Shown here piece after piece: positions 1,662 through 53,053 of a DNA stretch of 64,000 nt; within the stretch, counting starts at the first letter, position 1, and the number at the start of each line of letters is the position of its first letter. Location of the stretch: assembly GCA_031268175.1 (NCBI GenBank), contig JAIRXR010000011.1, forward strand, positions 149,229 to 213,228, written 5' to 3'. The translations under genes and the position numbers were made by a program. The DNA comes from Puniceicoccales bacterium. GTDB lineage: Bacteria > Verrucomicrobiota > Verrucomicrobiia > Opitutales > JAIRKQ01. The notes beneath the pieces were generated by a model, which worked only from the letters and a program-made list of their open reading frames with translations, was not told where the DNA came from and searched no databases.

Positions 1662-2582
1662 ATGGAAAACAATCACAGTAGAATTAGCGAGGGACCGGGC
1701 GGCGGCGTGAATAAAAGCCAAAGCAAAGTTGGTTCGTTTTTCAGCTACATCATAGGGTGTATAACGAAGCCGTTCAAGTTCATATACGAACGACTCTCGG
1801 GGAAAAAACTGAAAGAACGCGGGGCGAAACAGACGAAGCTGGAACAACATGAGCAGCTAGACAACAAAGCAACTATCCAAGGGAAATTGAACGCAGGAAG
1901 TGAATCCGCGAGTAGTGTAGAGCAAGAAGTTGCCAGCCAACAAACCCCAATTGAACAAAATTCTAGCTCAACCGACTCGGTATCGACAGATATCTCACGA
2001 GAAAATGAAACGCCTGGTGCTATAACCGACACGCATCTCCCACTCCAAGGTGTACAGGAACAAATTGCATCGGCAGACGTACATGCGCCACTCAAAAATG
2101 TACAAACGCTGATTTCAGGCGAACCGGTATCGACAGATATCTTACGAGGAACTGAACCGCTCGATACGATGATCGAAATGATACAAAATCAAATCGATAA
2201 TACAAAAAATATGCGTTATACGTGTGGCGATGGCGTCAACGCCGCATCCAATATGCGCAATTCACTGTTGGCAAAGGCAGAAAAAAACCTTCGTACATTG
2301 CATGATACGCTAAAGGAACTGAATAAAGGAACCAGCATCGAAATTTCCAAGGAAAAAATTTTGGAAAACACTGCCAGTATTAAAAAACTTGAAAAAACCG
2401 TGGGAAAAATGAAAATCGCGAAAGGTACGCAAGAAACTCTTTTAGGTTTGATCCATGACGCAGAAAAAATACTGCTAGAATTACTGAACAAGACAAAAGA
2501 AAAGCAGGCAGAGAAAAAGCGACAAGAAATGTTCGACCGCATGCGAAGCCTGAAGACCCAGACAGGTAATAGTTGGAAGTAA
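1662..2582 (+). CDS. hypothetical polar/coiled-coil protein with no recognisable domain
   Basis: 306-aa ORF that is rich in S/T/N/Q/E/K with no TM segments. Its local GC is visibly lower than in neighbouring genes, and it contains a 23-bp direct repeat (about 1978-2000 and 2118-2141). Confidence 0.5.
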   Translation: MENNHSRISEGPGGGVNKSQSKVGSFFSYIIGCITKPFKFIYERLSGKKLKERGAKQTKLEQHEQLDNKATIQGKLNAGSESASSVEQEVASQQTPIEQNSSSTDSVSTDISRENETPGAITDTHLPLQGVQEQIASADVHAPLKNVQTLISGEPVSTDILRGTEPLDTMIEMIQNQIDNTKNMRYTCGDGVNAASNMRNSLLAKAEKNLRTLHDTLKELNKGTSIEISKEKILENTASIKKLEKTVGKMKIAKGTQETLLGLIHDAEKILLELLNKTKEKQAEKKRQEMFDRMRSLKTQTGNSWK

Positions 2583-5229: not shown

Positions 5230-5534
5230 TTATCAGGAGCTTTCGCGTCTGGAACAATGTTCTCAAGGTTTATGCCCTCGGCATAGCTCTGCCTGTGCGC
5301 ATTTGCACGGATGTGCAGCATGGACAGCACGAATGCTACGATAAAAAACGTGGCGATGCCGCTCACGGTCCACTTCGTCAACACCTTCGCCGTATCGCTG
5401 CCAAAGGCGAATTCAGCAGCCCCGCCTCCCAGGGAAAAACCCATTCCGGCATTGGCCGACGGCTTTTGCATAAGGATGACCAAGACGGTGAAAACACTCG
5501 TGCAAACCAGGAAAAAGGTCAAAAATATCACCAT
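5226..5534 (-). CDS. secG: preprotein translocase subunit SecG
   Basis: MVIFLTFFLVCTSVFTVLVILMQKPSANAGMGFSLGGGAAEFAFGSDTAKVLTKWT matches the SecG pattern (LLQxGKGxGxG...FGxxGxxxFLTR). The track ORF extends to 5600, and 5534 is the internal ATG consistent with SecG length. Confidence 0.6.
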   Translation of the reverse strand: MVIFLTFFLVCTSVFTVLVILMQKPSANAGMGFSLGGGAAEFAFGSDTAKVLTKWTVSGIATFFIVAFVLSMLHIRANAHRQSYAEGINLENIVPDAKAPDK

Positions 5535-5938
5535 GGCGAACGCATTTTCGAGCCAAAATGGCCATAAACGCCCGCTTGGCAAGAAAAAATTTCCCGGCAA
5601 TTGGAAATCCGCCCCGCGGATCCTTTCTGGAAAATCATCGGGCTAGGCTTTCTGCTTGTCCTTTGCGCTCATAACCTCGCCCTTGGCAAAGGTCTTATTC
5701 CCTTTTCCCTGTCCAATTTCCCTATCCAAGAACCTTACACGCTTGCTCTGCTCGCCTGCTCCACTTGGCCCATCCAACGACTTCTTCTCTTTAACTTCCA
5801 TAGCTTGGGCAATTCTACAAAAAAAATGGCACAAGCAAAGAACAAAAGTACCGGCGGCGTTTTTTCACGGGCGAAAGTAGGCAAATGGCGCACGCCGAGA
5901 CCTAAAAAGCACCGGAGCACAGAATTTGCGGGCTAAAA

Positions 5939-9685: not shown

Positions 9686-9907
9686 AGAACCTAACTTTAT
9701 CGGAAACCTGTTTTTAAAACCAAAATAAGCAACAATTTTTTAAATTTTTCAAATGCTAAAGACCGCTGGCGGCGCCTTAAATTCTTTACGGCACTTTCAC
9801 TGCGAAAGCCGTCCGCCGTGCGGCTTTGCGCGTGCAAATTTCGTGAGTGCAATTTGCACAAAGAAATCTACTTGACAATCACCATGGCATTTACATGTGT
9901 TCCCACT

Positions 9908-10393
9908 ATGAGGCGGTTCGTCAGATGTTTTGCGGTTCTCGCGGTTTCGACTGTGATTCTTTTCGGTGCTACAACGCAATCCGACGCCAGGGCGAGGTCT
10001 AGATCTGCAAGAAGACAGGAGCCAGTCGAGGAACCGGAGCGCATCTCCGCTGGAACTGTGCAGCGCTTCATCAGGAAGGGCATGTACTCCTACGAGGTTG
10101 TGGAAGCGCTCGGGTCGCCAAATATGGTGACGAAGAATGCCGAAGGAAACGAGACCTGGGTCTACGATAAGATTCGATCGGAGTATGTTGTTAAGCAGTC
10201 CGACGGAGGTATTTCCCTTGGAATCGGCGGCGTCGGGCTAATCGGAACGGGACTCCTCGGTGGTGGTGTGGGCGTCGGCGGGCATTCGTCGAAGGGATCC
10301 GGCTCATCGAGCGAGCGCACCCTGACCATAGTCATACACTTCGACTCCGAGGCCAAAGTTGTTGACTTTTCATACAGAACTACATCTTTCTGA
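9908..10393 (+). CDS. secreted SmpA/OmlA (BamE-like) domain protein with a glycine-zipper segment
   Basis: Signal-peptide-like MRRFVRCFAVLAVSTVILFG, then IRKGMYSYEVVEALGSPN...WVY resembling the BamE domain, then a Gly-rich GIGGVGLIGTGLLGGGVGVGG stretch. The track ORF begins at 9818. Confidence 0.4.
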   Translation: MRRFVRCFAVLAVSTVILFGATTQSDARARSRSARRQEPVEEPERISAGTVQRFIRKGMYSYEVVEALGSPNMVTKNAEGNETWVYDKIRSEYVVKQSDGGISLGIGGVGLIGTGLLGGGVGVGGHSSKGSGSSSERTLTIVIHFDSEAKVVDFSYRTTSF

Positions 10394-10404: not shown

Positions 10405-10944
10405 ATGCTCAAAATTAGGCTTGAAAAGTTTTTTGCGTTGTCGATGCTGTCGGCGCTGTGTTGCCTCGGCGGATGCTATTCCGATGGAGATGACAGCGCG
10501 AACCGTCAACAGCGTACCAGCGTGGACATACAGGCGCTGCAAACGCGCCAGTTCGAATGCTCGTACAAAGTGGCGTTTGCCGCCGTTGTCGATGTATTCC
10601 AGGATTTGGGATTTGTCATACAATCCTCTGATTTTACAACCGGGTTAGTCATAGCGAAAAGCAACGTGCAAAGTCGCGAGTCGCTCGGATTTTCGACATT
10701 CAAACCGGAAACTAAGGCAACGTGGGACGTCGGGACGGCGCATGTCGAAGAAGTCGGACATAATATCGTGTCGGTGCGCGTTAGCTTCGTCAGGCACAAA
10801 AAAGCTTCCTACGAGTATGGGTCTTCGAGCGAAAGTAGCTTTGCCATAACTGACGGGAGGTTTTATACGAATTTCTTCGAAAAGGTGGACAAGTCGATCT
10901 TCATTAGGCACAACCTGAAAGCGACTGCTAACGACCCGTTTTGA
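10405..10944 (+). CDS. hypothetical lipoprotein
   Basis: MLKIRLEKFFALSMLSALCCLGGC has a lipobox (LGGC) at the end of a signal peptide. No recognisable domain. Confidence 0.45.
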   Translation: MLKIRLEKFFALSMLSALCCLGGCYSDGDDSANRQQRTSVDIQALQTRQFECSYKVAFAAVVDVFQDLGFVIQSSDFTTGLVIAKSNVQSRESLGFSTFKPETKATWDVGTAHVEEVGHNIVSVRVSFVRHKKASYEYGSSSESSFAITDGRFYTNFFEKVDKSIFIRHNLKATANDPF

Positions 10945-25530: not shown

Positions 25531-25607
25531 CGGGGCGTAGCTTAGCCTGGCAGAGCGTTACGTTAGGGACGTAAAGGTCGCTGGTTCAAATCCAGTCGCC
25601 CCGACCA
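25531..25607 (+). tRNA. tRNA-Pro, anticodon apparently AGG
   Basis: 77-nt cloverleaf folded by hand. The acceptor is CGGGGCG/CGCCCCG with a C1:G72 pair and A73 (bacterial tRNA-Pro identity elements). The D loop has GG, the T loop is TTCAAAT, and the anticodon stem TTACG/CGTAA encloses the loop TTAGGGA. CCA is encoded. Confidence 0.7.
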
Positions 25608-27405: not shown

Positions 27406-27891
27406 ATGAGCAGCAGTAAAACAAAAGTTGAAGATGCGTTGAGCAATCTGGCGTTGCGGTTGAAGCTGGAGTCGTTGAAACTCAACGATCGCGACGAAAC
27501 CTATTTGCTATTTGATCAAAAATTTCACGTGACGTGTGTGTTTGACGAAGAAAAGGACGAATTCATTCTCACATCCATCGTCGGAGATTTGGCAAAAAAC
27601 TCGATTGAGGCCTACAAAAAGCTACTCAATGACAATTTTTTCTGGGCTGGCACGGCGGGGTCGCGCCTGTTCCTCGATCCCGGGAGCGGCGACGAACCGG
27701 ACACAATCACAATAAAGGAAACCATTCCCGTCGCAATGTTCGACGAGGAGCGGCTCTACGAGCGCATGGAAGATTTTGTGAACGCGGTCGAATATTGGAG
27801 CACTGAATATCCAAAATTGAGCCAGGGCGGTGGTGTGGCGGTGGCAGCTCCGCAGGTGAGCATCTCTGACTTCGGCATGATGAGCGCATAG
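27406..27891 (+). CDS. type III secretion class I chaperone-like protein (CesT/SycE family)
   Basis: 161 aa, acidic. The core ETYLLFDQKFHVTCVFDEEKDEFILTSIVGDL followed by LNDNFFWAGTAGSRLFLDP parallels the CesT pattern ([26 protein letters not shown] ... LNANLWFAENGG). Recognised from memory of the family, not by a search. Confidence 0.55.
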   Translation: MSSSKTKVEDALSNLALRLKLESLKLNDRDETYLLFDQKFHVTCVFDEEKDEFILTSIVGDLAKNSIEAYKKLLNDNFFWAGTAGSRLFLDPGSGDEPDTITIKETIPVAMFDEERLYERMEDFVNAVEYWSTEYPKLSQGGGVAVAAPQVSISDFGMMSA

Positions 27892-27905: not shown

Positions 27906-28505
27906 ATGTGTGCGTTGGTTGATTCGTGGTTGGTCGGCTTGAAGAGGGCTCCTATCTTGCATTCCGCGCGGCTGTTGCTACGCCCGGTGTGCGTCGGCGA
28001 CGTTGTGCACATTCAGAGCAGCATAGACGACAAGCGCGTGTGCGACAATCTGTCCTATGTGCCACACCCATACACAGTGGAAATGGCGGAAACCTGGACG
28101 CGCAACGTAAACTTCGGGATGGCCAATGGGTCCTGCTGCTACTGGACGATATGCGACCAAAAAACCGAAGAATTCATTGGATCGATGGGTCTGAGCATAC
28201 ACAATGAACAGGACGGTTGCGAAATGCACTACTGGGTGAACGCCGACCAGTGGAACAAGGGCTATTGCACTGAGGCCGCCAAGCGCACAATCGTGCACGC
28301 CTTTGAAGATATCGGAATGCACAGGGTATTCATTACGCACCGCGAAAACGGCCTGGCGTCGAAGACGGTGATTAAAAAATGTGGATTTGTCCTAGAGGGT
28401 ATCCTGCGGGACTCGCTGAAGCGCTTCGGCAAATTTGAAAACGTTGCAACATATAGCATGCTGCACGACGAATATCTTGCCATGAAAAAAAATGGTCTAT
28501 ACTAG
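27906..28505 (+). CDS. GNAT family N-acetyltransferase (RimJ/RimL-like)
   Basis: Acetyltransf_3-like layout with LLLRP near the N-terminus and an acetyl-CoA binding region (RVFITHRENGLASKTVIKKCGF). Confidence 0.7.
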   Translation: MCALVDSWLVGLKRAPILHSARLLLRPVCVGDVVHIQSSIDDKRVCDNLSYVPHPYTVEMAETWTRNVNFGMANGSCCYWTICDQKTEEFIGSMGLSIHNEQDGCEMHYWVNADQWNKGYCTEAAKRTIVHAFEDIGMHRVFITHRENGLASKTVIKKCGFVLEGILRDSLKRFGKFENVATYSMLHDEYLAMKKNGLY

Positions 28506-29610: not shown

Positions 29611-30144
29611 ATGCACAGCATCAGCGTCATAGATTTCGAGGGAAACAAGGGGCTGGGAATTTTCGAATTTGGCGTGGTGACGCTGCTGGATTTTGAAATA
29701 ATTTCCACGCGTACGGAATTTTGCCAGGGCACTTTTCACGAGCATTTGGAATATTTTCTTTCACTGCGTAGAACCGGCCTGCTGGGCGCACACTCCGCCC
29801 AGACGGAGGATGGTTTGCTGCGCCATTACTGGGCATCTCCCGGGCTGGTTCCAACTTTTGCCGGCGGCCAAATGGTGCCGTCATGGGGGCCGTGGGCGGA
29901 CACGAAATTGATCCATAGAAAGCTATTTCCGCAGCTACAATCCTACGAATTGGAGGATTTGGTAGCCTCATTTGCGCTGTTCCCGGAATTGGAAAAATTG
30001 GCAAAAAAATACTGCTGCCCAGGCGGCACGAAATTTCACAGTGCCCTATTCGATGCCCTCGCAACTTCATTGCTGCTTCAAAACTTACAAAAGAATTTCG
30101 CCAATGTTTCCCTGGAAACGCTGCTGGCAATTTGCGAAAAATAA
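29611..30144 (+). CDS. DEDDh-family 3'-5' exonuclease (DnaQ-like)
   Basis: An Exo I-like VIDFEGN (DxE) motif and an Exo III-like HSALFDA (HxAxxD) motif. The 3' end of this gene is duplicated at 31375-31479. Confidence 0.55.
   Translation: MHSISVIDFEGNKGLGIFEFGVVTLLDFEIISTRTEFCQGTFHEHLEYFLSLRRTGLLGAHSAQTEDGLLRHYWASPGLVPTFAGGQMVPSWGPWADTKLIHRKLFPQLQSYELEDLVASFALFPELEKLAKKYCCPGGTKFHSALFDALATSLLLQNLQKNFANVSLETLLAICEK
30021..30126 (+). repeat. direct repeat copy A (3' end of the exonuclease gene)
   Basis: About 80% identical to 31375-31479 by manual alignment (cgaaatt(t/c)cacagtgc...aatgttt(c/t)c(c/t)ctggaaa(c/t)gctgct). Looser similarity with an indel continues to about 30165/31515. Confidence 0.7.
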
Positions 30145-30462
30145 TGGCAAAAACTAGTTTTCATTGCCAAGAACCGACCATCGCACTGCATGCGTCGCAT
30201 GGTCGCCAGTGTAACAACAAATTTATCTAACAATTGGAAACGCAAATAGCGCTGTGAGCACATGTCGTGGCGAACCGGTACGTGTTTCCAATTTTACATG
30301 CTAAACGGCGTTGCATATTGCAAAAATCTTAGCTTCGCAGTTGTTCCAAGCAAAAGAAATACCGTTGAGCTTTTATCGTATATAAAAAACAAAACTTATT
30401 TTTTATTGACAATTTAATTTTGACGATGTTTGTCGTTTTACACAGCCAAAGAAAGATTAGTT

Positions 30463-31179
30463 ATGTCAAATGATATTAGAACACTAAGTAACGATATGTC
30501 AAACGCCGTTAACAAAATGATTAACAGCATCCAAGGTAGATTGCACAAAATCGATAGTTTAGGAAAGGAATTTTCTGCTGAAAAAAAGGGAAATGGTCTT
30601 TCTCCGTCTGTATCTAAAACACGTGAAACACCCGCAACAGCGCGAACGTCCGTTTCCAATTCCAATGTACCTTTAAACAAGGGCATTCCACCGAGGCCAA
30701 ACAACAATCCCTCTACGGTTCAAGTCGTAAGACAAGAACCCACAAATTTACCAGCGGCGCGGCGATTGTTGATCGATGAGGAAATAGATAAAAGACTCAT
30801 TGAGTGTAAAAAAGCTTTCGATGAGAATAATGGAAACGGAAATACTGTAATCGAGACTGACACAAAGATCGCCAGTATTGCCTATAATGCGTACTTTGAT
30901 TTACTTACAGAATATACGAAAGATGGAGATGTAATTTATGTCGCAGATGTCGGTATTTTTTATGAAAAAGCTAGAATACTTGGACTTGTGTTCAGCTGCT
31001 ACGCAAACCACTCTATGAAAAACTGTATGAATGCCGTTCTTAGCACTGTAACAACTGGTAAAAAAATTTCACGCGAAATATCGAAATTCTTTAATGTCCC
31101 ACAGAAAGAAGCTGAAAAACAATTAGAAGAGATTTGGCTCGACGAACTGGATGCCTTACTAGACCGCTTAGAAGACTAA
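30463..31179 (+). CDS. hypothetical protein carried on the low-GC insertion, with an S/N/T-rich disordered N-terminal region
   Basis: ATG at 30463 (MSNDIRTLSNDMSNAV...). The track ORF begins at a TTG at 30430. The gene is strongly AT-rich relative to the flanks, has no signal peptide or TM, and shows no recognisable domain. Confidence 0.5.
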   Translation: MSNDIRTLSNDMSNAVNKMINSIQGRLHKIDSLGKEFSAEKKGNGLSPSVSKTRETPATARTSVSNSNVPLNKGIPPRPNNNPSTVQVVRQEPTNLPAARRLLIDEEIDKRLIECKKAFDENNGNGNTVIETDTKIASIAYNAYFDLLTEYTKDGDVIYVADVGIFYEKARILGLVFSCYANHSMKNCMNAVLSTVTTGKKISREISKFFNVPQKEAEKQLEEIWLDELDALLDRLED

Positions 31180-31192
31180 TGAGTTATCATGG

Positions 31193-31393
31193 CTAGTTTT
31201 TACCGTGCCAATGGTAAATGTTTTCCATGAGATTTATCACTAGCAAAAATATCACAATAACGGCAGCGGCGACGATGGCAAAGGACAAAGTTATAGCTGG
31301 TTCGACCATCGTCGTCAAAAATACTAGGCGATACCTAATTTTTTCATCGCAGATTTCGCCTATTTTCGCAATCCGCGGGGCGCGAAATTCCAC
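31193..31393 (-). CDS. small hydrophobic hypothetical protein on the insertion
   Basis: 66-aa ORF with one TM helix (LSFAIVAAAVIVIFLLVINL). Its start lies inside repeat copy B. It could be spurious. Confidence 0.25.
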   Translation of the reverse strand: MEFRAPRIAKIGEICDEKIRYRLVFLTTMVEPAITLSFAIVAAAVIVIFLLVINLMENIYHWHGKN

Positions 31394-31479
31394 AGTGCGC
31401 TGTTCGATTCCCTTGCAACTTCACTGCTGCCCCAAAATTTACGGAAATATTTCACTAATGTTTCTCTGGAAATGCTGCT
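31375..31479 (+). repeat. direct repeat copy B (diverged duplicate of the exonuclease 3' end)
   Basis: In the exonuclease frame it encodes ...KFHSALFDSLATSLLPQNLRKYFTNVSLEMLLFI*, an intact-looking C-terminal remnant ending at the TAG at 31486-31488. Confidence 0.7.
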
Positions 31480-31544
31480 ATTCATTTAGGGCAAACAGAA
31501 TTCAAAATTAGTCTTTTGTTGACAAAAACGATTTTCTTCGCAGC

Positions 31545-32456
31545 ATGCGCCGCATGATCGTAGAGGTAATTTGTGTTATAGTTACTACGTTCTTTGCAGT
31601 TGCGCTGTTCGGTTTTTTCATAGTGAAGCAGCAAACGTGCGCGATCGTCGAAAGATTGGGCAAATTTTTCCGCGTGGCGCAGCCTGGGCTATCTTGGAGG
31701 ATCCCGTTCATAGACTCCATAGCTAGCAGGTTATCGTTTCGCATCCACCAACTGTACGTCGAAGTTGAGACGAAAACGCAGGACAATGTGTTCGTAAACG
31801 TCGCCGTCGCCGTGCAATACCGCGTGCTGAGTGATAAAGTCTTTCAGGCATACTACACTTTGCAGGATCACCAGGCGCAAATCAAATCCTTCGTCTTTGA
31901 CCTGGTGCGCGCCCAGGTGCCGCTGCTGATTCTCGACGACGTTTTTTCGAAAAAGGACGACATTGCCAATGCTGTGAAATCCAATCTGCTTGGGACCATG
32001 GAAACCTTTGGCTACGAAATCGTGGAGGCGCTGATAACCGACATCAACCCCGATGCCAACGTCAAAGCCGCCATGAATGAAATCAACACGGCCCAGCGCC
32101 TGCGCGTAGCCGCCACCGAGCGCGGAGAAAGTGAAAAAATCATCCGCGTGAAGCAAGCGGAAGCCGAGGCGGAATCCAACATTTTGCACGGCCGTGGAAT
32201 TGCCGGCCAGCGCGCAGCCATCATCGAAGGTCTTGGCCACTCCGTCGAAGAATTTGTCAAACAAATCCCCGACGCCCAGGCGTCGACCGTCATGGAAATG
32301 GTGATGCTTATCCAGTACATCGACACGCTGAAGGAGATCGGCGGCAATGCGCGGGCGAGCGTCGTTTTCGTTCCGCATTCTCCGGGCAATTTGAAAGACG
32401 TCAGCGAGCAAATTCGCGAAACAGTATTCGCCGATAAATTTACTGGTGGAAAGTAA
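31545..32456 (+). CDS. SPFH/Band 7 (stomatin/prohibitin-like) domain protein
   Basis: An N-terminal TM helix, then an SPFH core (IVERLGKF...) and a coiled-coil Ala/Glu-rich tail. Confidence 0.8.
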   Translation: MRRMIVEVICVIVTTFFAVALFGFFIVKQQTCAIVERLGKFFRVAQPGLSWRIPFIDSIASRLSFRIHQLYVEVETKTQDNVFVNVAVAVQYRVLSDKVFQAYYTLQDHQAQIKSFVFDLVRAQVPLLILDDVFSKKDDIANAVKSNLLGTMETFGYEIVEALITDINPDANVKAAMNEINTAQRLRVAATERGESEKIIRVKQAEAEAESNILHGRGIAGQRAAIIEGLGHSVEEFVKQIPDAQASTVMEMVMLIQYIDTLKEIGGNARASVVFVPHSPGNLKDVSEQIRETVFADKFTGGK

Positions 32457-39482: not shown

Positions 39483-39558
39483 TGGAGCCGAGGATGAGAT
39501 TCGAACTCACGACCCACGCATTACGAATGCGTTGCTCTACCAGCTGAGCTACCTCGGC
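39483..39558 (-). tRNA. tRNA-Thr (anticodon CGT)
   Basis: Reverse complement GCCGAGGTAGCTCAGCTGGTAGAGCAACGCATTCGTAATGCGTGGGTCGTGAGTTCGAATCTCATCCTCGGCTCCA folds into a canonical cloverleaf with anticodon loop TTCGTAA and encoded CCA. Confidence 0.8.
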
Positions 39559-39592
39559 GCGCCAGATGGAAACGACCTATTCCGCAGTGAAG

Positions 39593-39668
39593 TGGAGCCG
39601 ACTATCAGATTCGAACTGATGACCGTCCGCTTACAAGGCGGGTGCTCTACCAGCTGAGCTAAGTCGGC
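39593..39668 (-). tRNA. tRNA-Thr (anticodon TGT)
   Basis: Reverse complement GCCGACTTAGCTCAGCTGGTAGAGCACCCGCCTTGTAAGCGGACGGTCATCAGTTCGAATCTGATAGTCGGCTCCA, with anticodon loop CTTGTAA and encoded CCA. Confidence 0.8.
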
Positions 39669-42862: not shown

Positions 42863-43033
42863 CTATCCCTTTATTTCCCGGTGCAGCGTGTGGCGCCTGA
42901 GAAATTTATTAAACTTCATCTTCTCAACGCGCTCCGTCTGAACCTTCTTATTGCGCGTTGACATGTAACGGGAAACCGGCTTTCCCTCTTTTTTGGCCTC
43001 CGTGCACTCTAAAATTATGTACTCTCTTGGCAT
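42863..43033 (-). CDS. rpmG: 50S ribosomal protein L33
   Basis: [18 protein letters not shown]...[10 protein letters not shown] matches L33. The track ORF extends to 43051. Confidence 0.8.
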
Positions 43034-43285
43034 GGCATCAGTTATTAACAACTAGGTAAATTTTACCAATTAAAAACTCAACAAAAATTTTGAAATAAAT
43101 TAGAAATATACCTGCCTGTCGTCGAAATTTGCGCATCCGCCGGGTTTTTAGATCCGGCCTAATTTTTTGAACGGCGGCAATGGCGAAATATTTGCACAAA
43201 TCACAAATTTGAAATTAAATTTTACAAAAAAAAGATTGCAATATTTTCATAAATTGGCAAGCTTGTCAACTGAACGGAGATTGGC

Positions 43286-44509
43286 ATGAACATTAAAGCT
43301 ATTCATATGGCATCCCTTTCGGGAAAAAATCCATCTCGAAAAATTGATGGCAGAGCGATTATAAGTAGCGCTGGCACACCGGGCCAGGTAAAAGCACCAA
43401 AGGCGGCTGAGGCCAGGAGCATCGTTCCTGCGAAGCCGCAGCAAATTTTCACCGCGCCTGAACAGTTGCTGCAAGAAACGAAACCATTGGCGTGCAGATT
43501 AGCGACTGCGCCGATCACACCTAAATCGACCGCTGCAAAGTCGGACAAATCAAATATTTTACCGCTCAATCCAATTGCAAAGCTCCCGGGAAAGGCACCA
43601 CTTTCGAACCCACCGCAAACGCCAGCCACGCCGAACGACAAACGAAAACCATCGGACGCCGAAATCACCAATAGACTACTTTCGATTAAAAATCCGAAAT
43701 TGTCAATTAGCGCACCGGAACATGGCAAGGATTTTTACTTCGAACAGCAGAGAAATGGCAGCATTTGCGGTCTGTGCGCCGCACGCAACTACGTCGGCGC
43801 ACCGTGTGTCTCGCTGAAAACTTTAAACAATATAAAGAGAAATCACTTCGCCGGGAAAGCCGTACTGGCCACGGCGTGCGACCACATCAACAACGCGCTT
43901 GCGATACTCATGCCGCAGATGAAAAAAATAGTGACCGAAGGCAAACTTTCAAAAGCTCCAAAAAATTCAATGGAATTGCTGGCGGAATTGTCCCGCCTGG
44001 CAACCGCAACTGTCCAGGATGGGGAAAAAGTTATCGACGCCATCAACGCCGTTCTTCCGGCGCTCAACGCGGCTGGACTCGGGCAATCAAAGGCCTACGC
44101 GTCCATGCAAAAGCAAATTTACAGGATACGCAGCGACTGCCTCGACGTATCAGTTGGCGGAAGCGACCCTGCCTTCGTATTGGAAGCACTGCGACAAGTT
44201 GATCCAAATGTCGTCTCCGAACCCTACTACAAGCTGCCCAACGGCGGCAATATTTTCGAGACCCTCGATGCCAAGCACGCGAACCGCGGCATTGTTAGCA
44301 TCCGCGGCCATTTCGTCACCGTGCGAAAGGATGGACGCGGCCAATGGTATATCCTAGATTCTCTGCGGTCAAGCCCAACGCCGATAGCGAAAGGCTCCAA
44401 CGCCTTGCGGGGGTACTCCGGTGTAATTTACTCAACCGAAGACTCAATCGATCCAGTTCTCGTAGACAAACTGATAGCTGCCATGAACGAAGCATCCTCA
44501 GCATTCTAG
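43286..44509 (+). CDS. hypothetical protein with a disordered P/S/K/A-rich N-terminal third and a C-terminal Cys...His...Asp domain resembling a papain-like protease
   Basis: 407 aa with no signal peptide. Residues 1 to about 140 are low-complexity. The region QQRNGSICGLCAARNY resembles a papain/OTU-like Cys box, and IRGHFVTVRKDGRGQWYILDSL supplies His/Asp candidates. A GGAG RBS lies 7 nt before the ATG, which is preceded by a 250-bp AT-rich region. Confidence 0.45.
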   Translation: MNIKAIHMASLSGKNPSRKIDGRAIISSAGTPGQVKAPKAAEARSIVPAKPQQIFTAPEQLLQETKPLACRLATAPITPKSTAAKSDKSNILPLNPIAKLPGKAPLSNPPQTPATPNDKRKPSDAEITNRLLSIKNPKLSISAPEHGKDFYFEQQRNGSICGLCAARNYVGAPCVSLKTLNNIKRNHFAGKAVLATACDHINNALAILMPQMKKIVTEGKLSKAPKNSMELLAELSRLATATVQDGEKVIDAINAVLPALNAAGLGQSKAYASMQKQIYRIRSDCLDVSVGGSDPAFVLEALRQVDPNVVSEPYYKLPNGGNIFETLDAKHANRGIVSIRGHFVTVRKDGRGQWYILDSLRSSPTPIAKGSNALRGYSGVIYSTEDSIDPVLVDKLIAAMNEASSAF

Positions 44510-51741: not shown

Positions 51742-52260
51742 ATGTCAGCTTTTTTCTTCGCCACTCTGCACTACTCCACGCTAATTTTCTGCCAATTTTT
51801 CAACAACGCGACCCAATACCCGAGCGCATTGATCGTTCCGGTTGGGCTACTCATCCACGACCACGGAGATTATTTGGGACCAATCGGCGGGACAATTCTG
51901 TGCCTAGCGATTGGGTTGCTGCTCGATGCAACATTCTGGTTTTTGCCATTTGGATTCAGCGTAATTTTTTGCCTCTTCTTTCACTGTGCGCGAAAGCTAC
52001 TGGCAAACGCCGCAGCCGACAAAGCGATCCGCCATCGCATTGCCTGCGAGCAGCTCGCAAATATTTTGTACGTATTTTTTCTATTTGCCCTCGGAAGTGG
52101 ACCTTTTCCCGTGAGCAAATTTTTGGCAACGGCGGCACTGTCACAGGCAGCTGTGTTTTTTAGTTCGGGCCCAATGGCGCGGGCGCACGTAAAAATTGCG
52201 TCATTCTGCGACGGCTACGCAAAGTATGGCCGTCGGACAATCAAAAATTCGTTCCGTTGA
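51742..52260 (+). CDS. mreD: rod shape-determining protein MreD
   Basis: A 172-aa polytopic membrane protein starting 3 nt after the mreC stop, which is the canonical mreC-mreD order. The assignment rests on position and size. Confidence 0.5.
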   Translation: MSAFFFATLHYSTLIFCQFFNNATQYPSALIVPVGLLIHDHGDYLGPIGGTILCLAIGLLLDATFWFLPFGFSVIFCLFFHCARKLLANAAADKAIRHRIACEQLANILYVFFLFALGSGPFPVSKFLATAALSQAAVFFSSGPMARAHVKIASFCDGYAKYGRRTIKNSFR

Positions 52261-53053
52261 AGCTGATTCTTCCGAAGCTCTTCCTGGAATTTGCAAAGAG
52301 GAAATCCTTCGCTTTCGCCCGGTCCTTCGACGCCACGGCGTCGAATTTTTGAGCATCTCTCCCCTGGAAAGCGCGTAGTGTGACATCCAGAAATATCAAT
52401 TCTCCTGGTACTGTTAGTGATTTTCCAGATTTTTGATATGCCAACGCGCCGCCGAAGAAAATCATCCGTTCGTTCGAGGCGGTCATGAAAATTTTTCCAT
52501 TACGCTTCTTCACGGCGGCGCGAATTTTGAAATCGGAGAGTACAGTGTCGAATTTGCGAACCTGTTTGCAGGATTGGTCAGCGCCGTCGAAAAACTTTTT
52601 AAATGACGATCCATTGGCCAGCGCACCCTGCAGCGACAGCGTGGTGGTCGCATCGAGCAAAATCCTCGAAACTTCAACTTTTCCAGCTCCCAATTGGAGA
52701 ACGTCGTAGCACAGAGCCCTCGTCACGCTGGGCTCGCCGTTGTCGGCGACCGTCGCGAAGCAGAATATGGCGATGCCTTTGCCGTCGTCTCTTGCGCAAA
52801 TTTCAAAAATTGGCTGATTCTTGTCCAGCATGACAACCGACTCGAAATCGGTCCTCATGCCCTTTAACAGCGCGTGCAATGCGCAGTCGACGCCCCTAGC
52901 CTCTTCCATCGATTTCGCATTTTCAGCGGAAACATTGACGAGCTTTCCCCCTAGAAACACCACAACTACCACGATGCTCAGCGCTAGAATCACCTCGAAT
53001 AGCGAAAAAGCTCTACCTTTTCCAACTCCCAAACTACAAAATCCCTTTGACAT
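52241..53053 (-). CDS. prepilin-type N-terminal cleavage/methylation domain protein (pseudopilin-like)
   Basis: The N-terminal GKGRAFSLFEVILALSIVVVVVFL matches the class III signal (F-S-L-x-E with Glu+5) plus a hydrophobic helix. The remainder is a beta-rich periplasmic domain. Confidence 0.55.
   Translation of the reverse strand: MSKGFCSLGVGKGRAFSLFEVILALSIVVVVVFLGGKLVNVSAENAKSMEEARGVDCALHALLKGMRTDFESVVMLDKNQPIFEICARDDGKGIAIFCFATVADNGEPSVTRALCYDVLQLGAGKVEVSRILLDATTTLSLQGALANGSSFKKFFDGADQSCKQVRKFDTVLSDFKIRAAVKKRNGKIFMTASNERMIFFGGALAYQKSGKSLTVPGELIFLDVTLRAFQGRDAQKFDAVASKDRAKAKDFLFANSRKSFGRISFNGTNF

Follow-up and report, generated by a model that had tools for sequence, protein, structure and literature searches.

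The prophage e14 of Escherichia coli is an element of about 15 kb that encodes its own integrase and is excised upon SOS induction. Cis-mobilizable elements (CIMEs) are decayed ICE or IME remnants, such as the one located at the 3' end of the fda gene of Streptococcus thermophilus. They are recognised by the existence of related ICEs or IMEs that target the same att site with cognate integrases, and have near-identical att sites. The integration of e14 takes place in icd: icd reads into the prophage, and a displaced fragment, icdC, with mainly synonymous differences, is found at the far end (PMC13626634). By definition, CIMEs have lost the genes of integration and transfer and have kept attL and attR; they are thought to originate via the deletion of recombination and transfer modules (PMC5704250). 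The locus described here lies in a 64-kb window (the whole stretch of DNA that was analysed) of a Puniceicoccales bacterium. It carries an insertion flanked by two diverged copies, A and B, of a junction between two genes. Its features are listed in Table 1.

Table 1. Features of the insertion locus, sorted by position. Coordinates are those of the window.
Feature	Position	Strand	Remarks
DEDDh (DnaQ-like) 3'-5' exonuclease gene, LBI61_03875	29611..30144	+	Intact; 177 aa; last 40 codons within copy A
Repeat copy A	30025..30205	+	Local alignment; four-way alignment with two empty sites
Inserted DNA proper	30206..31378		1173 bp, 38.4% GC
Imperfect inverted repeat, 21 nt	30415-30435 / 31303-31323		81% complementary; brackets the orphan gene, internal to the insert; probably a chance match
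Orphan gene, LBI61_03880	30463..31179	+	Called gene; 238 aa; annotated hypothetical protein
Small hydrophobic ORF	31193..31393	-	66 aa if started at a GTG, 38 aa if started at the ATG of position 31309; probably not a gene
Repeat copy B	31379..31560	+	Local alignment; upstream in-frame stop, no start codon
SPFH/Band-7 (HflC-like) gene	31545..32456	+	Intact; right-hand neighbour of the insertion; Pfam PF01145, E 2e-33

The duplicated gene junction

The left-hand neighbour of the insertion belongs to the DEDDh exonucleases. Its protein, which is 100% identical to P0001, has the Exo I-III acidic residues and the H-x4-D motif of this family and is matched by the PADLOC DEDDh model (E 4.3e-9); residues D8, E10, D67, H143 and D148 are invariant across the 16 homologues of the family alignment. 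Among its 162 homologues, some carry PF00929. The protein itself has no Pfam match at E 0.1, PF00929 being reached only by more distant homologues, and a PDB search with the profile of its clade found zero sequences. In relatives, the gene directly 3' of the exonuclease gene shares 80-86% identity with the right-hand neighbour. The spacer was read in five related loci, of which four (L001, L002, L004, L005) have kept a TTGACA box some 30 nt upstream of the SPFH ATG; in L003, the called SPFH start leaves a spacer of only 5 nt. The GC skew of the window tracks gene orientation, so that no replication terminus can be inferred from it.

According to the original prediction, about 100 bp of the end of the exonuclease gene recur at about 80% identity beyond the insert. 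This repeat is real (79% identity over 105 coding nucleotides, without gaps; 82% over the first 93) but larger than described. It extends over about 181 bp, each copy comprising the final 120 bp of the exonuclease gene, the short spacer between the genes and SPFH codons 1 to 5; beyond the exonuclease stop, it runs through the spacer and takes in the initial 16 nt of SPFH (ATGCGYCGCATGRTCG). The site is therefore a gene junction, at which both neighbours are rescued. Formal alignment of A and B gives a score of 131, far above that of 300 shuffles (18.4 +/- 2.3, maximum 31). A 25-nt degenerate core has exactly two occurrences in the window (0 expected by chance), and among direct repeats of 50 nt or more spaced within 8 kb, the A/B pair is the only one in the window that is neither tRNA nor intragenic. 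The ends of the repeat are sharp, and its sequence is homologous to the exonuclease-end/SPFH-start junction of relatives.

The two copies have retained complementary parts. Copy A provides the functional 3' end of the exonuclease gene (stop at 30142-30144), with all family-invariant residues, including the catalytic H143 and D148; its spacer is decayed (TTGCCA at 30164-30169 where TTGACA is expected) and its SPFH start is a relic (ATGCGTCGCATGGTCG, 30190-30205). Copy B encodes the in-frame C-terminal remnant that had been predicted, ...KFHSALFDSLATSLLPQNLRKYFTNVSLEMLLFI followed by a stop. This exonuclease tail shows A149S, a Pro at a conserved hydrophobic (L/I) position and an early stop (TAG at 31487-31489); it is a relic, since an in-frame stop is found 15 codons upstream and there is no start codon. 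The spacer of copy B is a working one, with TTGACA at 31519-31524, and is followed by the real SPFH start codons at 31545 and 31554. Thus, A keeps the exonuclease end and B keeps the TTGACA box and the SPFH start.

The site is empty in 12 distinct related Puniceicoccales genomes, in which the exonuclease gene is directly followed, after about 40-55 bp, by the SPFH gene; gene order is otherwise identical to that of the occupied locus. The comparison with related genomes that accompanied the prediction as a check thus shows the segment to be lineage-specific. In L016, the exonuclease/SPFH junction is disrupted: the exonuclease gene is followed by a dispersed repeat and by other sequence of 260 bp or more. 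A link between the A/B repeat and the dispersed repeat of about 110 nt of L006 and L016 was rejected, no similarity being found.

Several types of integration do not account for this structure. A tRNA or tmRNA target is rejected, the nearest tRNAs being at 25.5 kb and 39.5 kb. Xer/dif-type (IMEX) integration is unsupported: inspection of the block by eye found no dif-like 11-6-11 palindrome. An IS, a MITE or a transposon is likewise rejected: there is no transposase, the inverted repeat internal to the insert is at chance level, and a duplication of 181 bp is too long, far exceeding known target-site duplications. Within 4 kb, 7 pairs of comparable quality exist, this inverted repeat among them; about 0.1-0.9 such pairs would be expected by chance according to our own estimate.

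The insert and its orphan gene

The AT-rich composition noted at first sight holds: the inserted DNA has the lowest GC content of all 1173-bp windows (mean 0.51, sd 0.026; 51.0% for the whole window), and the bin 30001-31000 has the lowest GC content among the 64 bins of 1 kb. The predicted ORF of 238 aa exists, is annotated and is one real gene. Its GC3 is 0.347, against 0.60 +/- 0.055 in 50 other ORFs, i.e. about 4.6 sd lower. Residues ~41-97 of its product are disordered and rich in Ser, Thr, Asn and Pro; residues ~98-237 form an all-helical domain. The opposed small hydrophobic ORF is present as an ORF, but its status of gene is unsupported: it is called neither by NCBI nor by JGI (accessions MDR1433443-46 are consecutive across the locus), and its exact sequence is absent from a collection of 15 billion proteins. 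A toxin or holin function is unsupported, as it is unannotated and has only sub-threshold matches, which come from the hydrophobic stretch.

Among 1.84 billion representatives, the only homologue of the orphan protein is P0122 (E 8.8e-5, 38% identity over 94 aa). It is encoded at a different locus of another genome, within a block of unannotated lineage-specific genes, which shows that the orphan family is accessory and positionally variable. Searches of Pfam, PHROGs, PADLOC and NCBIfam with the orphan protein gave zero matches. Its AF2 model has a pLDDT of 55 and no fold match in PDB (best E at least 0.95, generic helical bundles). The family gained no new member when 5.8 billion proteins were searched with a profile and metagenome and viral contigs were scanned by back-translation. 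An origin as phage, plasmid or defence-system cargo is unsupported, tblastn against phages and plasmids as well as PHROGs, PADLOC and NCBIfam being empty.

As predicted, no integrase or transposase is encoded by the insert; no recombinase of any kind was found in it or among the ORFs of 150 aa or more across the 64-kb window. Transfer genes are absent from the insert. No second copy of the repeat or of the insert is found in the window, and relatives of the repeat or of the cargo were found in none of the genome, metagenome, viral, phage and plasmid collections. A search for alleles of the repeat by codon-degenerate pattern gave 0 in the metagenome and genome collections, which evidently exclude the source genome.

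Two further explanations were considered. In the first, a tandem duplication of about 1.35 kb would have extended from the 3' end of the exonuclease gene through the SPFH gene; the first SPFH copy would then have eroded to an AT-rich stretch, and the 238-aa ORF would have arisen from or within its debris. The period of 1354 bp is indeed near the summed length of exonuclease tail, spacer and SPFH gene (~1.1 kb), and a weak diagonal continues past the repeat (25 of 55 positions identical at offset 1353, 30236-30290). However, the score of gapped local alignment past the repeat does not exceed that of shuffles (P 0.48), and blastn and tblastx of the insert against the SPFH gene, the rest of the window and all loci gave nothing; the insert has no similarity to the window or to related loci except that of the orphan C-terminal domain to L006. 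Since the orphan has a homologue with a conserved C-terminal domain at another locus of another genome, it was not born here. An interior decayed past recognition is also incompatible with flanking repeats of still about 80% identity. Such a duplication followed by decay is largely refuted and highly improbable.

In the second explanation, the assembler would have stitched two strain variants of the junction around an unrelated fragment. The source is a metagenome-assembled genome of MEGAHIT style (contig names k119_...), and related Puniceicoccales populations co-occur in termite-gut samples, L001 and L002 coming from one sample. Such an artefact is barely credible nevertheless. The longest exact run shared by A and B is 9 nt, so that a de Bruijn graph could not confuse or join the copies; the interior is a coherent intact gene that has its own homologue; the same 271-kb contig is found in NCBI and JGI; and a strain carrying "orphan gene + copy B + SPFH" would pose the same puzzle.

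Origin of the insertion

Over 34 codons, A and B differ by 12 synonymous and 7 non-synonymous changes (pN/pS 0.20), and 11 of the 19 differences are at third positions. The coding part (105 nt) has 0 indels; the 76 nt past the stop codon have several. The low non-synonymous count and the lack of coding indels suggest that A and B diverged largely while both were translated, i.e. in separate genomes. When in-place duplication was simulated with B neutral from the start, the mean number of non-synonymous differences (Nd) was 10.4-12.5 and P(Nd<=7) was ~0-0.05. The significance of these tests of constraint, roughly 0.01-0.05, depends on the assumed mutation model (kappa, omega) and has a small basis (34 codons, ~180 nt). 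From these sequence comparisons, divergence as working genes in separate genomes is modestly favoured over duplication in place.

Duplication in place would imply a single event of illegitimate recombination or repair that duplicated the junction of about 181 bp and trapped 1.17 kb of foreign DNA, or else a tandem duplication whose junction captured foreign DNA. The two copies, initially identical, would have decayed in a complementary manner because each was needed by one neighbour only. A and B are indeed mutual nearest relatives (82% identity, against at most 77% to any orthologue). According to a three-taxon estimate, B appears to have evolved about twice as fast as A, and the changes assignable to B are mostly non-synonymous and at conserved residues, as in a relic. 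The lack of a recombinase and of an identical core, and the single known occurrence, also fit this explanation. Against it, the non-synonymous differences are too few for a copy evolving neutrally ever since the duplication, and indels are absent from the 105-nt coding relic of B yet abundant in the spacer relic, which is just as redundant (rough Poisson probability 0.004-0.06). We know of no well-described bacterial mechanism by which a foreign insert would come to be flanked by a duplicated target of about 180 bp. Duplication in place followed by complementary decay is disfavoured; its two variants together are possible, if rather doubtful.

Given about an even chance, the preferred explanation is that an integrating element inserted long ago and left a remnant devoid of an integrase, comparable to a CIME or to a stripped-down version of e14 in icd. 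The insertion would have arisen when a small circular element recombined with the chromosomal junction. The circle would have carried its own junction copy, already diverged (an attP-like block of about 181 bp), and about 1.2 kb of AT-rich cargo encoding a single protein, the orphan. A single crossover, in the block or at its edge, would have placed this cargo between two direct copies of the junction; it was most likely catalysed by a site-specific recombinase that has since been lost or was supplied in trans. Copy A would complete the exonuclease gene and copy B would supply the promoter-like TTGACA box and the SPFH start codon, so that neither neighbour would be damaged. The redundant halves, i.e. 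the exonuclease tail in B and the spacer and SPFH start in A, would then have decayed, and the orphan gene would have been kept open and expressed from its own upstream region. The insertion, the duplication, the foreign composition, the complementary pattern of retention and decay and the lack of a recombinase are observed; the circular intermediate, the site-specific recombinase and the foreign origin of one of the copies are what we infer. The remnant is probably immobile now.

The prediction of an integrative element that supplies a replacement 3' end is partly supported. The excess of synonymous differences and the lack of coding indels fit it. There is no conserved identical core: the longest identical run of A and B (GCAACTTCA) is short, yet possible for an old event or for an overlap region of 6-8 bp. 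Other points speak against an integrating element. The unit of 1.35 kb is far smaller than known integrative elements. The window lacks a recombinase, the shared core does not exceed 9 nt and only one copy is known.

Mobilisation of a cassette in trans had also been raised by the prediction. As neither a further copy nor a recombinase nor an excision product was found, mobility is pure inference. It is improbable that termite-gut Puniceicoccales have an undescribed class of minimal cassettes that lack an integrase and use a recombinase provided in trans, with the 1.35-kb unit as a living member. Such cassettes would shuttle single orphan genes, possibly involved in host interaction, between genomes by mimicking a housekeeping junction, and their insertion would repair both flanking genes. 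The hint for such a class comes from the genome population with the sole homologue of the cargo gene: its exonuclease/SPFH junction is disrupted too, in L016.

Significance and comparison with described systems

The locus is a clean and fully delimited case in which a compact genome has admitted a foreign gene at a tight junction, a spacer of about 50 bp containing the promoter of the next gene, with both neighbours unharmed. Harm was avoided because a second junction copy either came with the foreign gene or was created. The locus is a tidy and fairly ordinary example; a new mechanism would be involved only if mobility in trans were true. To our knowledge, mobile elements are almost undescribed in termite-gut Verrucomicrobiota, and no system of this kind has been described in Verrucomicrobiota, order Puniceicoccales. 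The footprint of a replacement gene end, found in prophages of E. coli and remnants of Firmicute ICEs, would extend to these bacteria.

The insert resembles the islets of orphan or effector genes of host-associated bacteria: a low-GC lineage-specific gene is located in an otherwise perfectly syntenic housekeeping region, and its product has a disordered N-terminal half, no detectable family and a homologue among unannotated genes. A conserved CesT-family chaperone gene, located 2.6 kb upstream, adds to the resemblance. As LBI61_03880 appears to be horizontally acquired and maintained, it is a reasonable candidate for a niche-specific protein, possibly involved in host interaction. Its role as a secreted effector is speculation; no secretion apparatus genes are found within the 64-kb window.

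The insert shares with CIMEs the presence of flanking repeats and the absence of recombinase and transfer genes. Unlike CIMEs, it has no known partner element, integrase or second occupied site. Unlike e14, the unit is 1.35 kb long, without a recombinase and without evidence of excision; the duplicated block also takes in the spacer and the beginning of the downstream gene; and the copies are about 20% diverged, without a long identical core. The insertions of e14 and phage 21 in icd of E. coli and the present one have three features in common. The insertion occurs within the 3' part of a housekeeping gene. In e14 and, according to the preferred explanation, here, the gene is kept working by a diverged substitute end carried by the element, and the displaced native end is found as a pseudogene fragment on the far side. 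The differences between the two ends are mostly synonymous, which is reflected here by the pN/pS of 0.20, with no indels in the coding part.

The duplicated junction and its insert

The exonuclease gene (DEDDh, DnaQ-like) and the SPFH (Band-7) gene are separated by an AT-rich insert bracketed by two diverged copies, A and B, of the sequence joining them. The original prediction was a direct repeat of the last ~100 bp of the exonuclease gene. This coding part is real (105 nt, 79% identical, no gaps; 82% in the first 93 nt): the local alignment of the copies scores 131 (18.4 ± 2.3, maximum 31, in shuffles), and a degenerate core 25-mer occurs exactly twice in 64 kb (0 expected). The predicted extent was too short. 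The similarity goes on beyond the exonuclease stop, across the spacer, and stops just past the SPFH start (ATGCGTCGCATGGTCG in copy A, ATGCGCCGCATGATCG in copy B), so the duplicated unit is the entire exonuclease-end/spacer/SPFH-start junction. Its limits are sharp on both sides; a similarity past the repeat, at 30236-30290 (25/55 identical, picked after the fact), finds no support in gapped alignment (P 0.48). Among direct repeats of at least 50 nt within 8 kb, the A/B pair is alone in the window, except for a tRNA-Thr pair and one intragenic repeat. That the duplication is an assembly artefact is unlikely, since the copies have no common k-mer that a de Bruijn assembler could confuse.

The AT-richness predicted for the insert is borne out. 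Its GC content (38.4% over 1173 bp; window, 51.0%) is the lowest that any 1173-bp stretch reaches (sd 0.026), the 1-kb bin 30001-31000 has the lowest GC of 64 bins, and the 238-aa orphan ORF has a GC3 of 0.347 (0.60 ± 0.055 in 50 long ORFs). As also predicted, no integrase or transposase is found: neither the insert nor any window ORF of at least 150 aa encodes a recombinase. The orphan gene lies between the arms of an imperfect inverted repeat (17/21 complementary, with TTTTGACGA as shared core), whose left arm covers part of a TTGACG/TTGACA-like stretch preceding the gene. Six other pairs, due to chance, match about equally well within the same 4 kb.

The window is part of a metagenome-assembled Puniceicoccales (Verrucomicrobiota) genome; its exonuclease protein is 100% identical to LBI61_03875 ("MAG: hypothetical protein", Puniceicoccales bacterium), encoded on a contig of 271 kb. 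The isolate names of the relatives' assemblies resemble termite-host codes followed by bin numbers (Gsp477_bin29, Nc350_bin191 and others), suggesting a termite gut origin. The gene order is FeS-assembly protein, CesT-family chaperone, GNAT acetyltransferase, LptF/G permease, exonuclease, insert and SPFH, followed by convergent iPGM and a RarA/MgsA-family AAA ATPase gene. The CesT-family (type III secretion chaperone-like) gene has the same position in every relative with called genes examined (L001-L005, L057); no secretion-apparatus gene is seen among window ORFs of at least 150 aa. The GNAT protein has 199 aa in the window, L003 and L005 and is called at 140-142 aa in L001, L002 and L004, probably a difference in start-codon calling and not a true truncation. 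No island lies beside the tRNA-Thr pair or the tRNA-Pro of the window. The ORF with the second-lowest GC (0.433; GC3, 0.44) encodes 306 aa without Pfam family, carries an internal direct repeat and may be another acquired or fast-evolving gene.

Coordinates of the features. Positions refer to the window unless a related locus (L006, L016) is named.
Feature	Positions	Strand	Basis or remark
ORF of second-lowest GC	1662-2582	+	
Internal direct repeat of this ORF	1949-2029 / 2096-2176		81 nt, period 147 nt, 70% identical
ORFs without significant Pfam family	9884-10393, 10405-10944, 43286-44509, 51742-52260	+	
ORF without significant Pfam family	52241-53053	-	
tRNA-Pro	25531-25607	+	AGG
CesT-family gene	27406-27891	+	Pfam E 3.9e-13
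GNAT gene	27906-28505	+	
Exonuclease gene	29611-30144	+	
Copy A	30025-30205		local alignment
TTGCCA in copy A	30164-30169		
Insert proper	30206-31378		
Inverted repeat, 21 nt	30415-30435 / 31303-31323		
Orphan gene (LBI61_03880)	30463-31179	+	
Copy B	31379-31560		local alignment
TTGACA in copy B	31519-31524		
SPFH gene	31545-32456	+	
tRNA-Thr pair	39483-39668	-	adjacent, CGT and TGT anticodons, 74% identical over 89 nt
Bin of somewhat low GC	43001-44000		1 kb, GC 0.45
Dispersed ~110-nt repeat	L006:106-176, 1313-1427, 1534-1781, 2795-2850, 5471-5636; L016:4664-4776		L006:1313-1427 inverted
Stretch after L016 exonuclease stop	L016:4535-4794		

Empty sites and complementary decay

Five relatives, retrieved by looking up identical proteins, share the gene order of the window; their SPFH start lies from 4 nt before (overlap, L001) to 72 nt past the exonuclease stop. 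Further relatives came from a scan of species-representative genomes. Altogether, 12 distinct genomes (exonuclease identity, 59-73%) have an SPFH gene that begins ~40-55 bp past the exonuclease gene, with no insertion at this junction in any of them (0/12). The empty site, exonuclease directly followed by SPFH, that the original prediction proposed to look for is therefore found in all 12. The SPFH neighbour is absent altogether in more distant Opitutales.

On sequence grounds, the DEDDh assignment is sound, since D8, E10, D67, H143 and D148 are invariant in the family alignment (16/16 homologues), the PADLOC DEDDh model recognises the protein (E 4.3e-9) and more distant homologues match PF00929. 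The exonuclease itself has no Pfam match, and a search of its clade profile against PDB sequences found none. The repeat starts at codon 139 and thus includes the catalytic H-x4-D motif. Copy A keeps all family-invariant residues. Copy B has A149S at an invariant position, a proline where 16/16 homologues have I, L or V, and a premature TAG; its frame has a stop 15 codons upstream and no start codon. The exonuclease end in copy B is, judged by these changes, a relic.

The spacer shows the reverse. Of five related loci with spacers read, four (L001, L002, L004, L005) have a TTGACA box 29-30 nt ahead of the SPFH ATG; in the fifth, L003, the called SPFH start leaves a 5-nt spacer only. Copy B has this box; copy A has TTGCCA instead. 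Decay is thus complementary, each copy having kept the half on which its intact neighbour depends. The TTGACA-to-ATG spacing, constant in copy B (31519-31547) and these four loci, would place the SPFH transcription start at or adjoining the start codon; the transcript may thus lack a leader or carry only a very short one. The SPFH start codon is called differently by NCBI and JGI (300 aa versus 303 aa).

The orphan cargo gene

The 238-aa ORF is a real gene: an open frame of this length in 38% GC DNA would arise by chance with a probability of ~5e-8 (own estimate from base composition). Among 1.84 billion representatives, its protein has a single true homologue, P0122 (348 aa, E 8.8e-5), and the two have C-terminal motifs in common (VADVG, LGLV[FY]SCY, ISK[FY]F.V.Q..AE). 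The N-terminal regions of both are long, of low complexity and probably disordered. In the AF2 model of the orphan protein, predicted pLDDT is below 50 at residues 26-96 and 60-83 in the helical C-terminal domain. No fold match was found in the PDB, no family in Pfam, PHROGs, PADLOC or NCBIfam, and no phage or plasmid match. The opposed small hydrophobic ORF of the original prediction is not counted as a gene: neither pipeline (NCBI, JGI) annotates it and its matches are all sub-threshold.

The P0122 gene lies elsewhere, beside three further unannotated genes, next to cmk-glmS, in a region syntenic with 13.5-17 kb of the window save those four genes. The orphan family is therefore accessory and variable in position. 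A dispersed intergenic repeat family (~110 nt, 74-83% identical, both orientations) surrounds the P0122 gene and also borders cmk in L006; it is not present in the window. In L016 (identical to L057; exonuclease 64% identical to the window's), at least 260 bp without SPFH start or TTGACA box follow the exonuclease stop before the contig ends. L016 thereby differs from the 12 other relatives, and its junction may have been disrupted, or have taken up an insertion, independently of the event in the window. The stretch holds a copy of the dispersed repeat, ~130 bp downstream of the exonuclease gene, just before the contig end. L006 and L016/L057 come from one JGI sample (3300042616). That such units form an active class of minimal, trans-mobilised cassettes, as hinted at by this disrupted junction in the genome population holding the only cargo homologue, is quite improbable.

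Origin and likeness to known systems

Integrative elements that supply a replacement gene end leave a Campbell-type footprint. A circular element with its own diverged junction copy would have left it here by recombining with the chromosomal junction; this origin is held with moderate confidence. An in-place event that duplicated the junction round captured DNA is less likely, though a real possibility. It predicts that copy B was untranslated ever since the copies were identical; a circular element predicts that A and B diverged mostly as working gene ends in different genomes. The copies have 19 differences in 34 codons, 11 at third positions (12 synonymous, 7 non-synonymous; pN/pS 0.20), whereas in-place simulations average 10.4-12.5 non-synonymous differences (P(Nd<=7) 0 to 0.05, according to kappa and omega). 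There are no indels in the 105-nt coding part and several in the 76 nt beyond; ~3-5 would be expected in the coding part after an in-place event, because the coding relic of B and the spacer relic of A would be equally unconstrained (rough Poisson estimate for finding none, 0.004-0.06). Both tests, on very little sequence (34 codons, 105 + 76 nt), point to the circular element. In favour of the in-place event, A and B are mutual nearest relatives (82%; at most 77% to orthologues), copy B is on a longer branch, their longest common identical run is 9 nt and the insert and window ORFs of at least 150 aa lack a recombinase. Decay of a large SPFH tandem duplication is effectively excluded as the origin: no trace of SPFH similarity is left in the insert, and the independent homologue of the cargo gene also counters it.

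The closest precedent comes from E. coli icd, with e14 (and phage 21). There icd runs on into the prophage, at whose other end sits a displaced fragment, icdC, with mostly synonymous differences (PMC13626634). In lacking an integrase, the insert fits cis-mobilizable elements as they are defined: remnants of an ICE or IME that keep attL and attR (PMC5704250). Unlike these systems, the unit is tiny (1.35 kb including one repeat), its copies are strongly diverged, neither a cognate integrase nor a partner element nor another occupied site was found, and the duplicated block spans a gene junction, so that both neighbours are rescued. The integrative-element reading of the original prediction is thus kept in part: the synonymous excess and the absence of indels modestly favour a replacement-end footprint, but the insert encodes no recombinase and gives no evidence of mobility, and is therefore not classed as an integrative element. 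It is probably a remnant carrying the footprint of one. To our knowledge, this footprint has not been described before in Verrucomicrobiota; the window would add to a known type of structure an example from that phylum.
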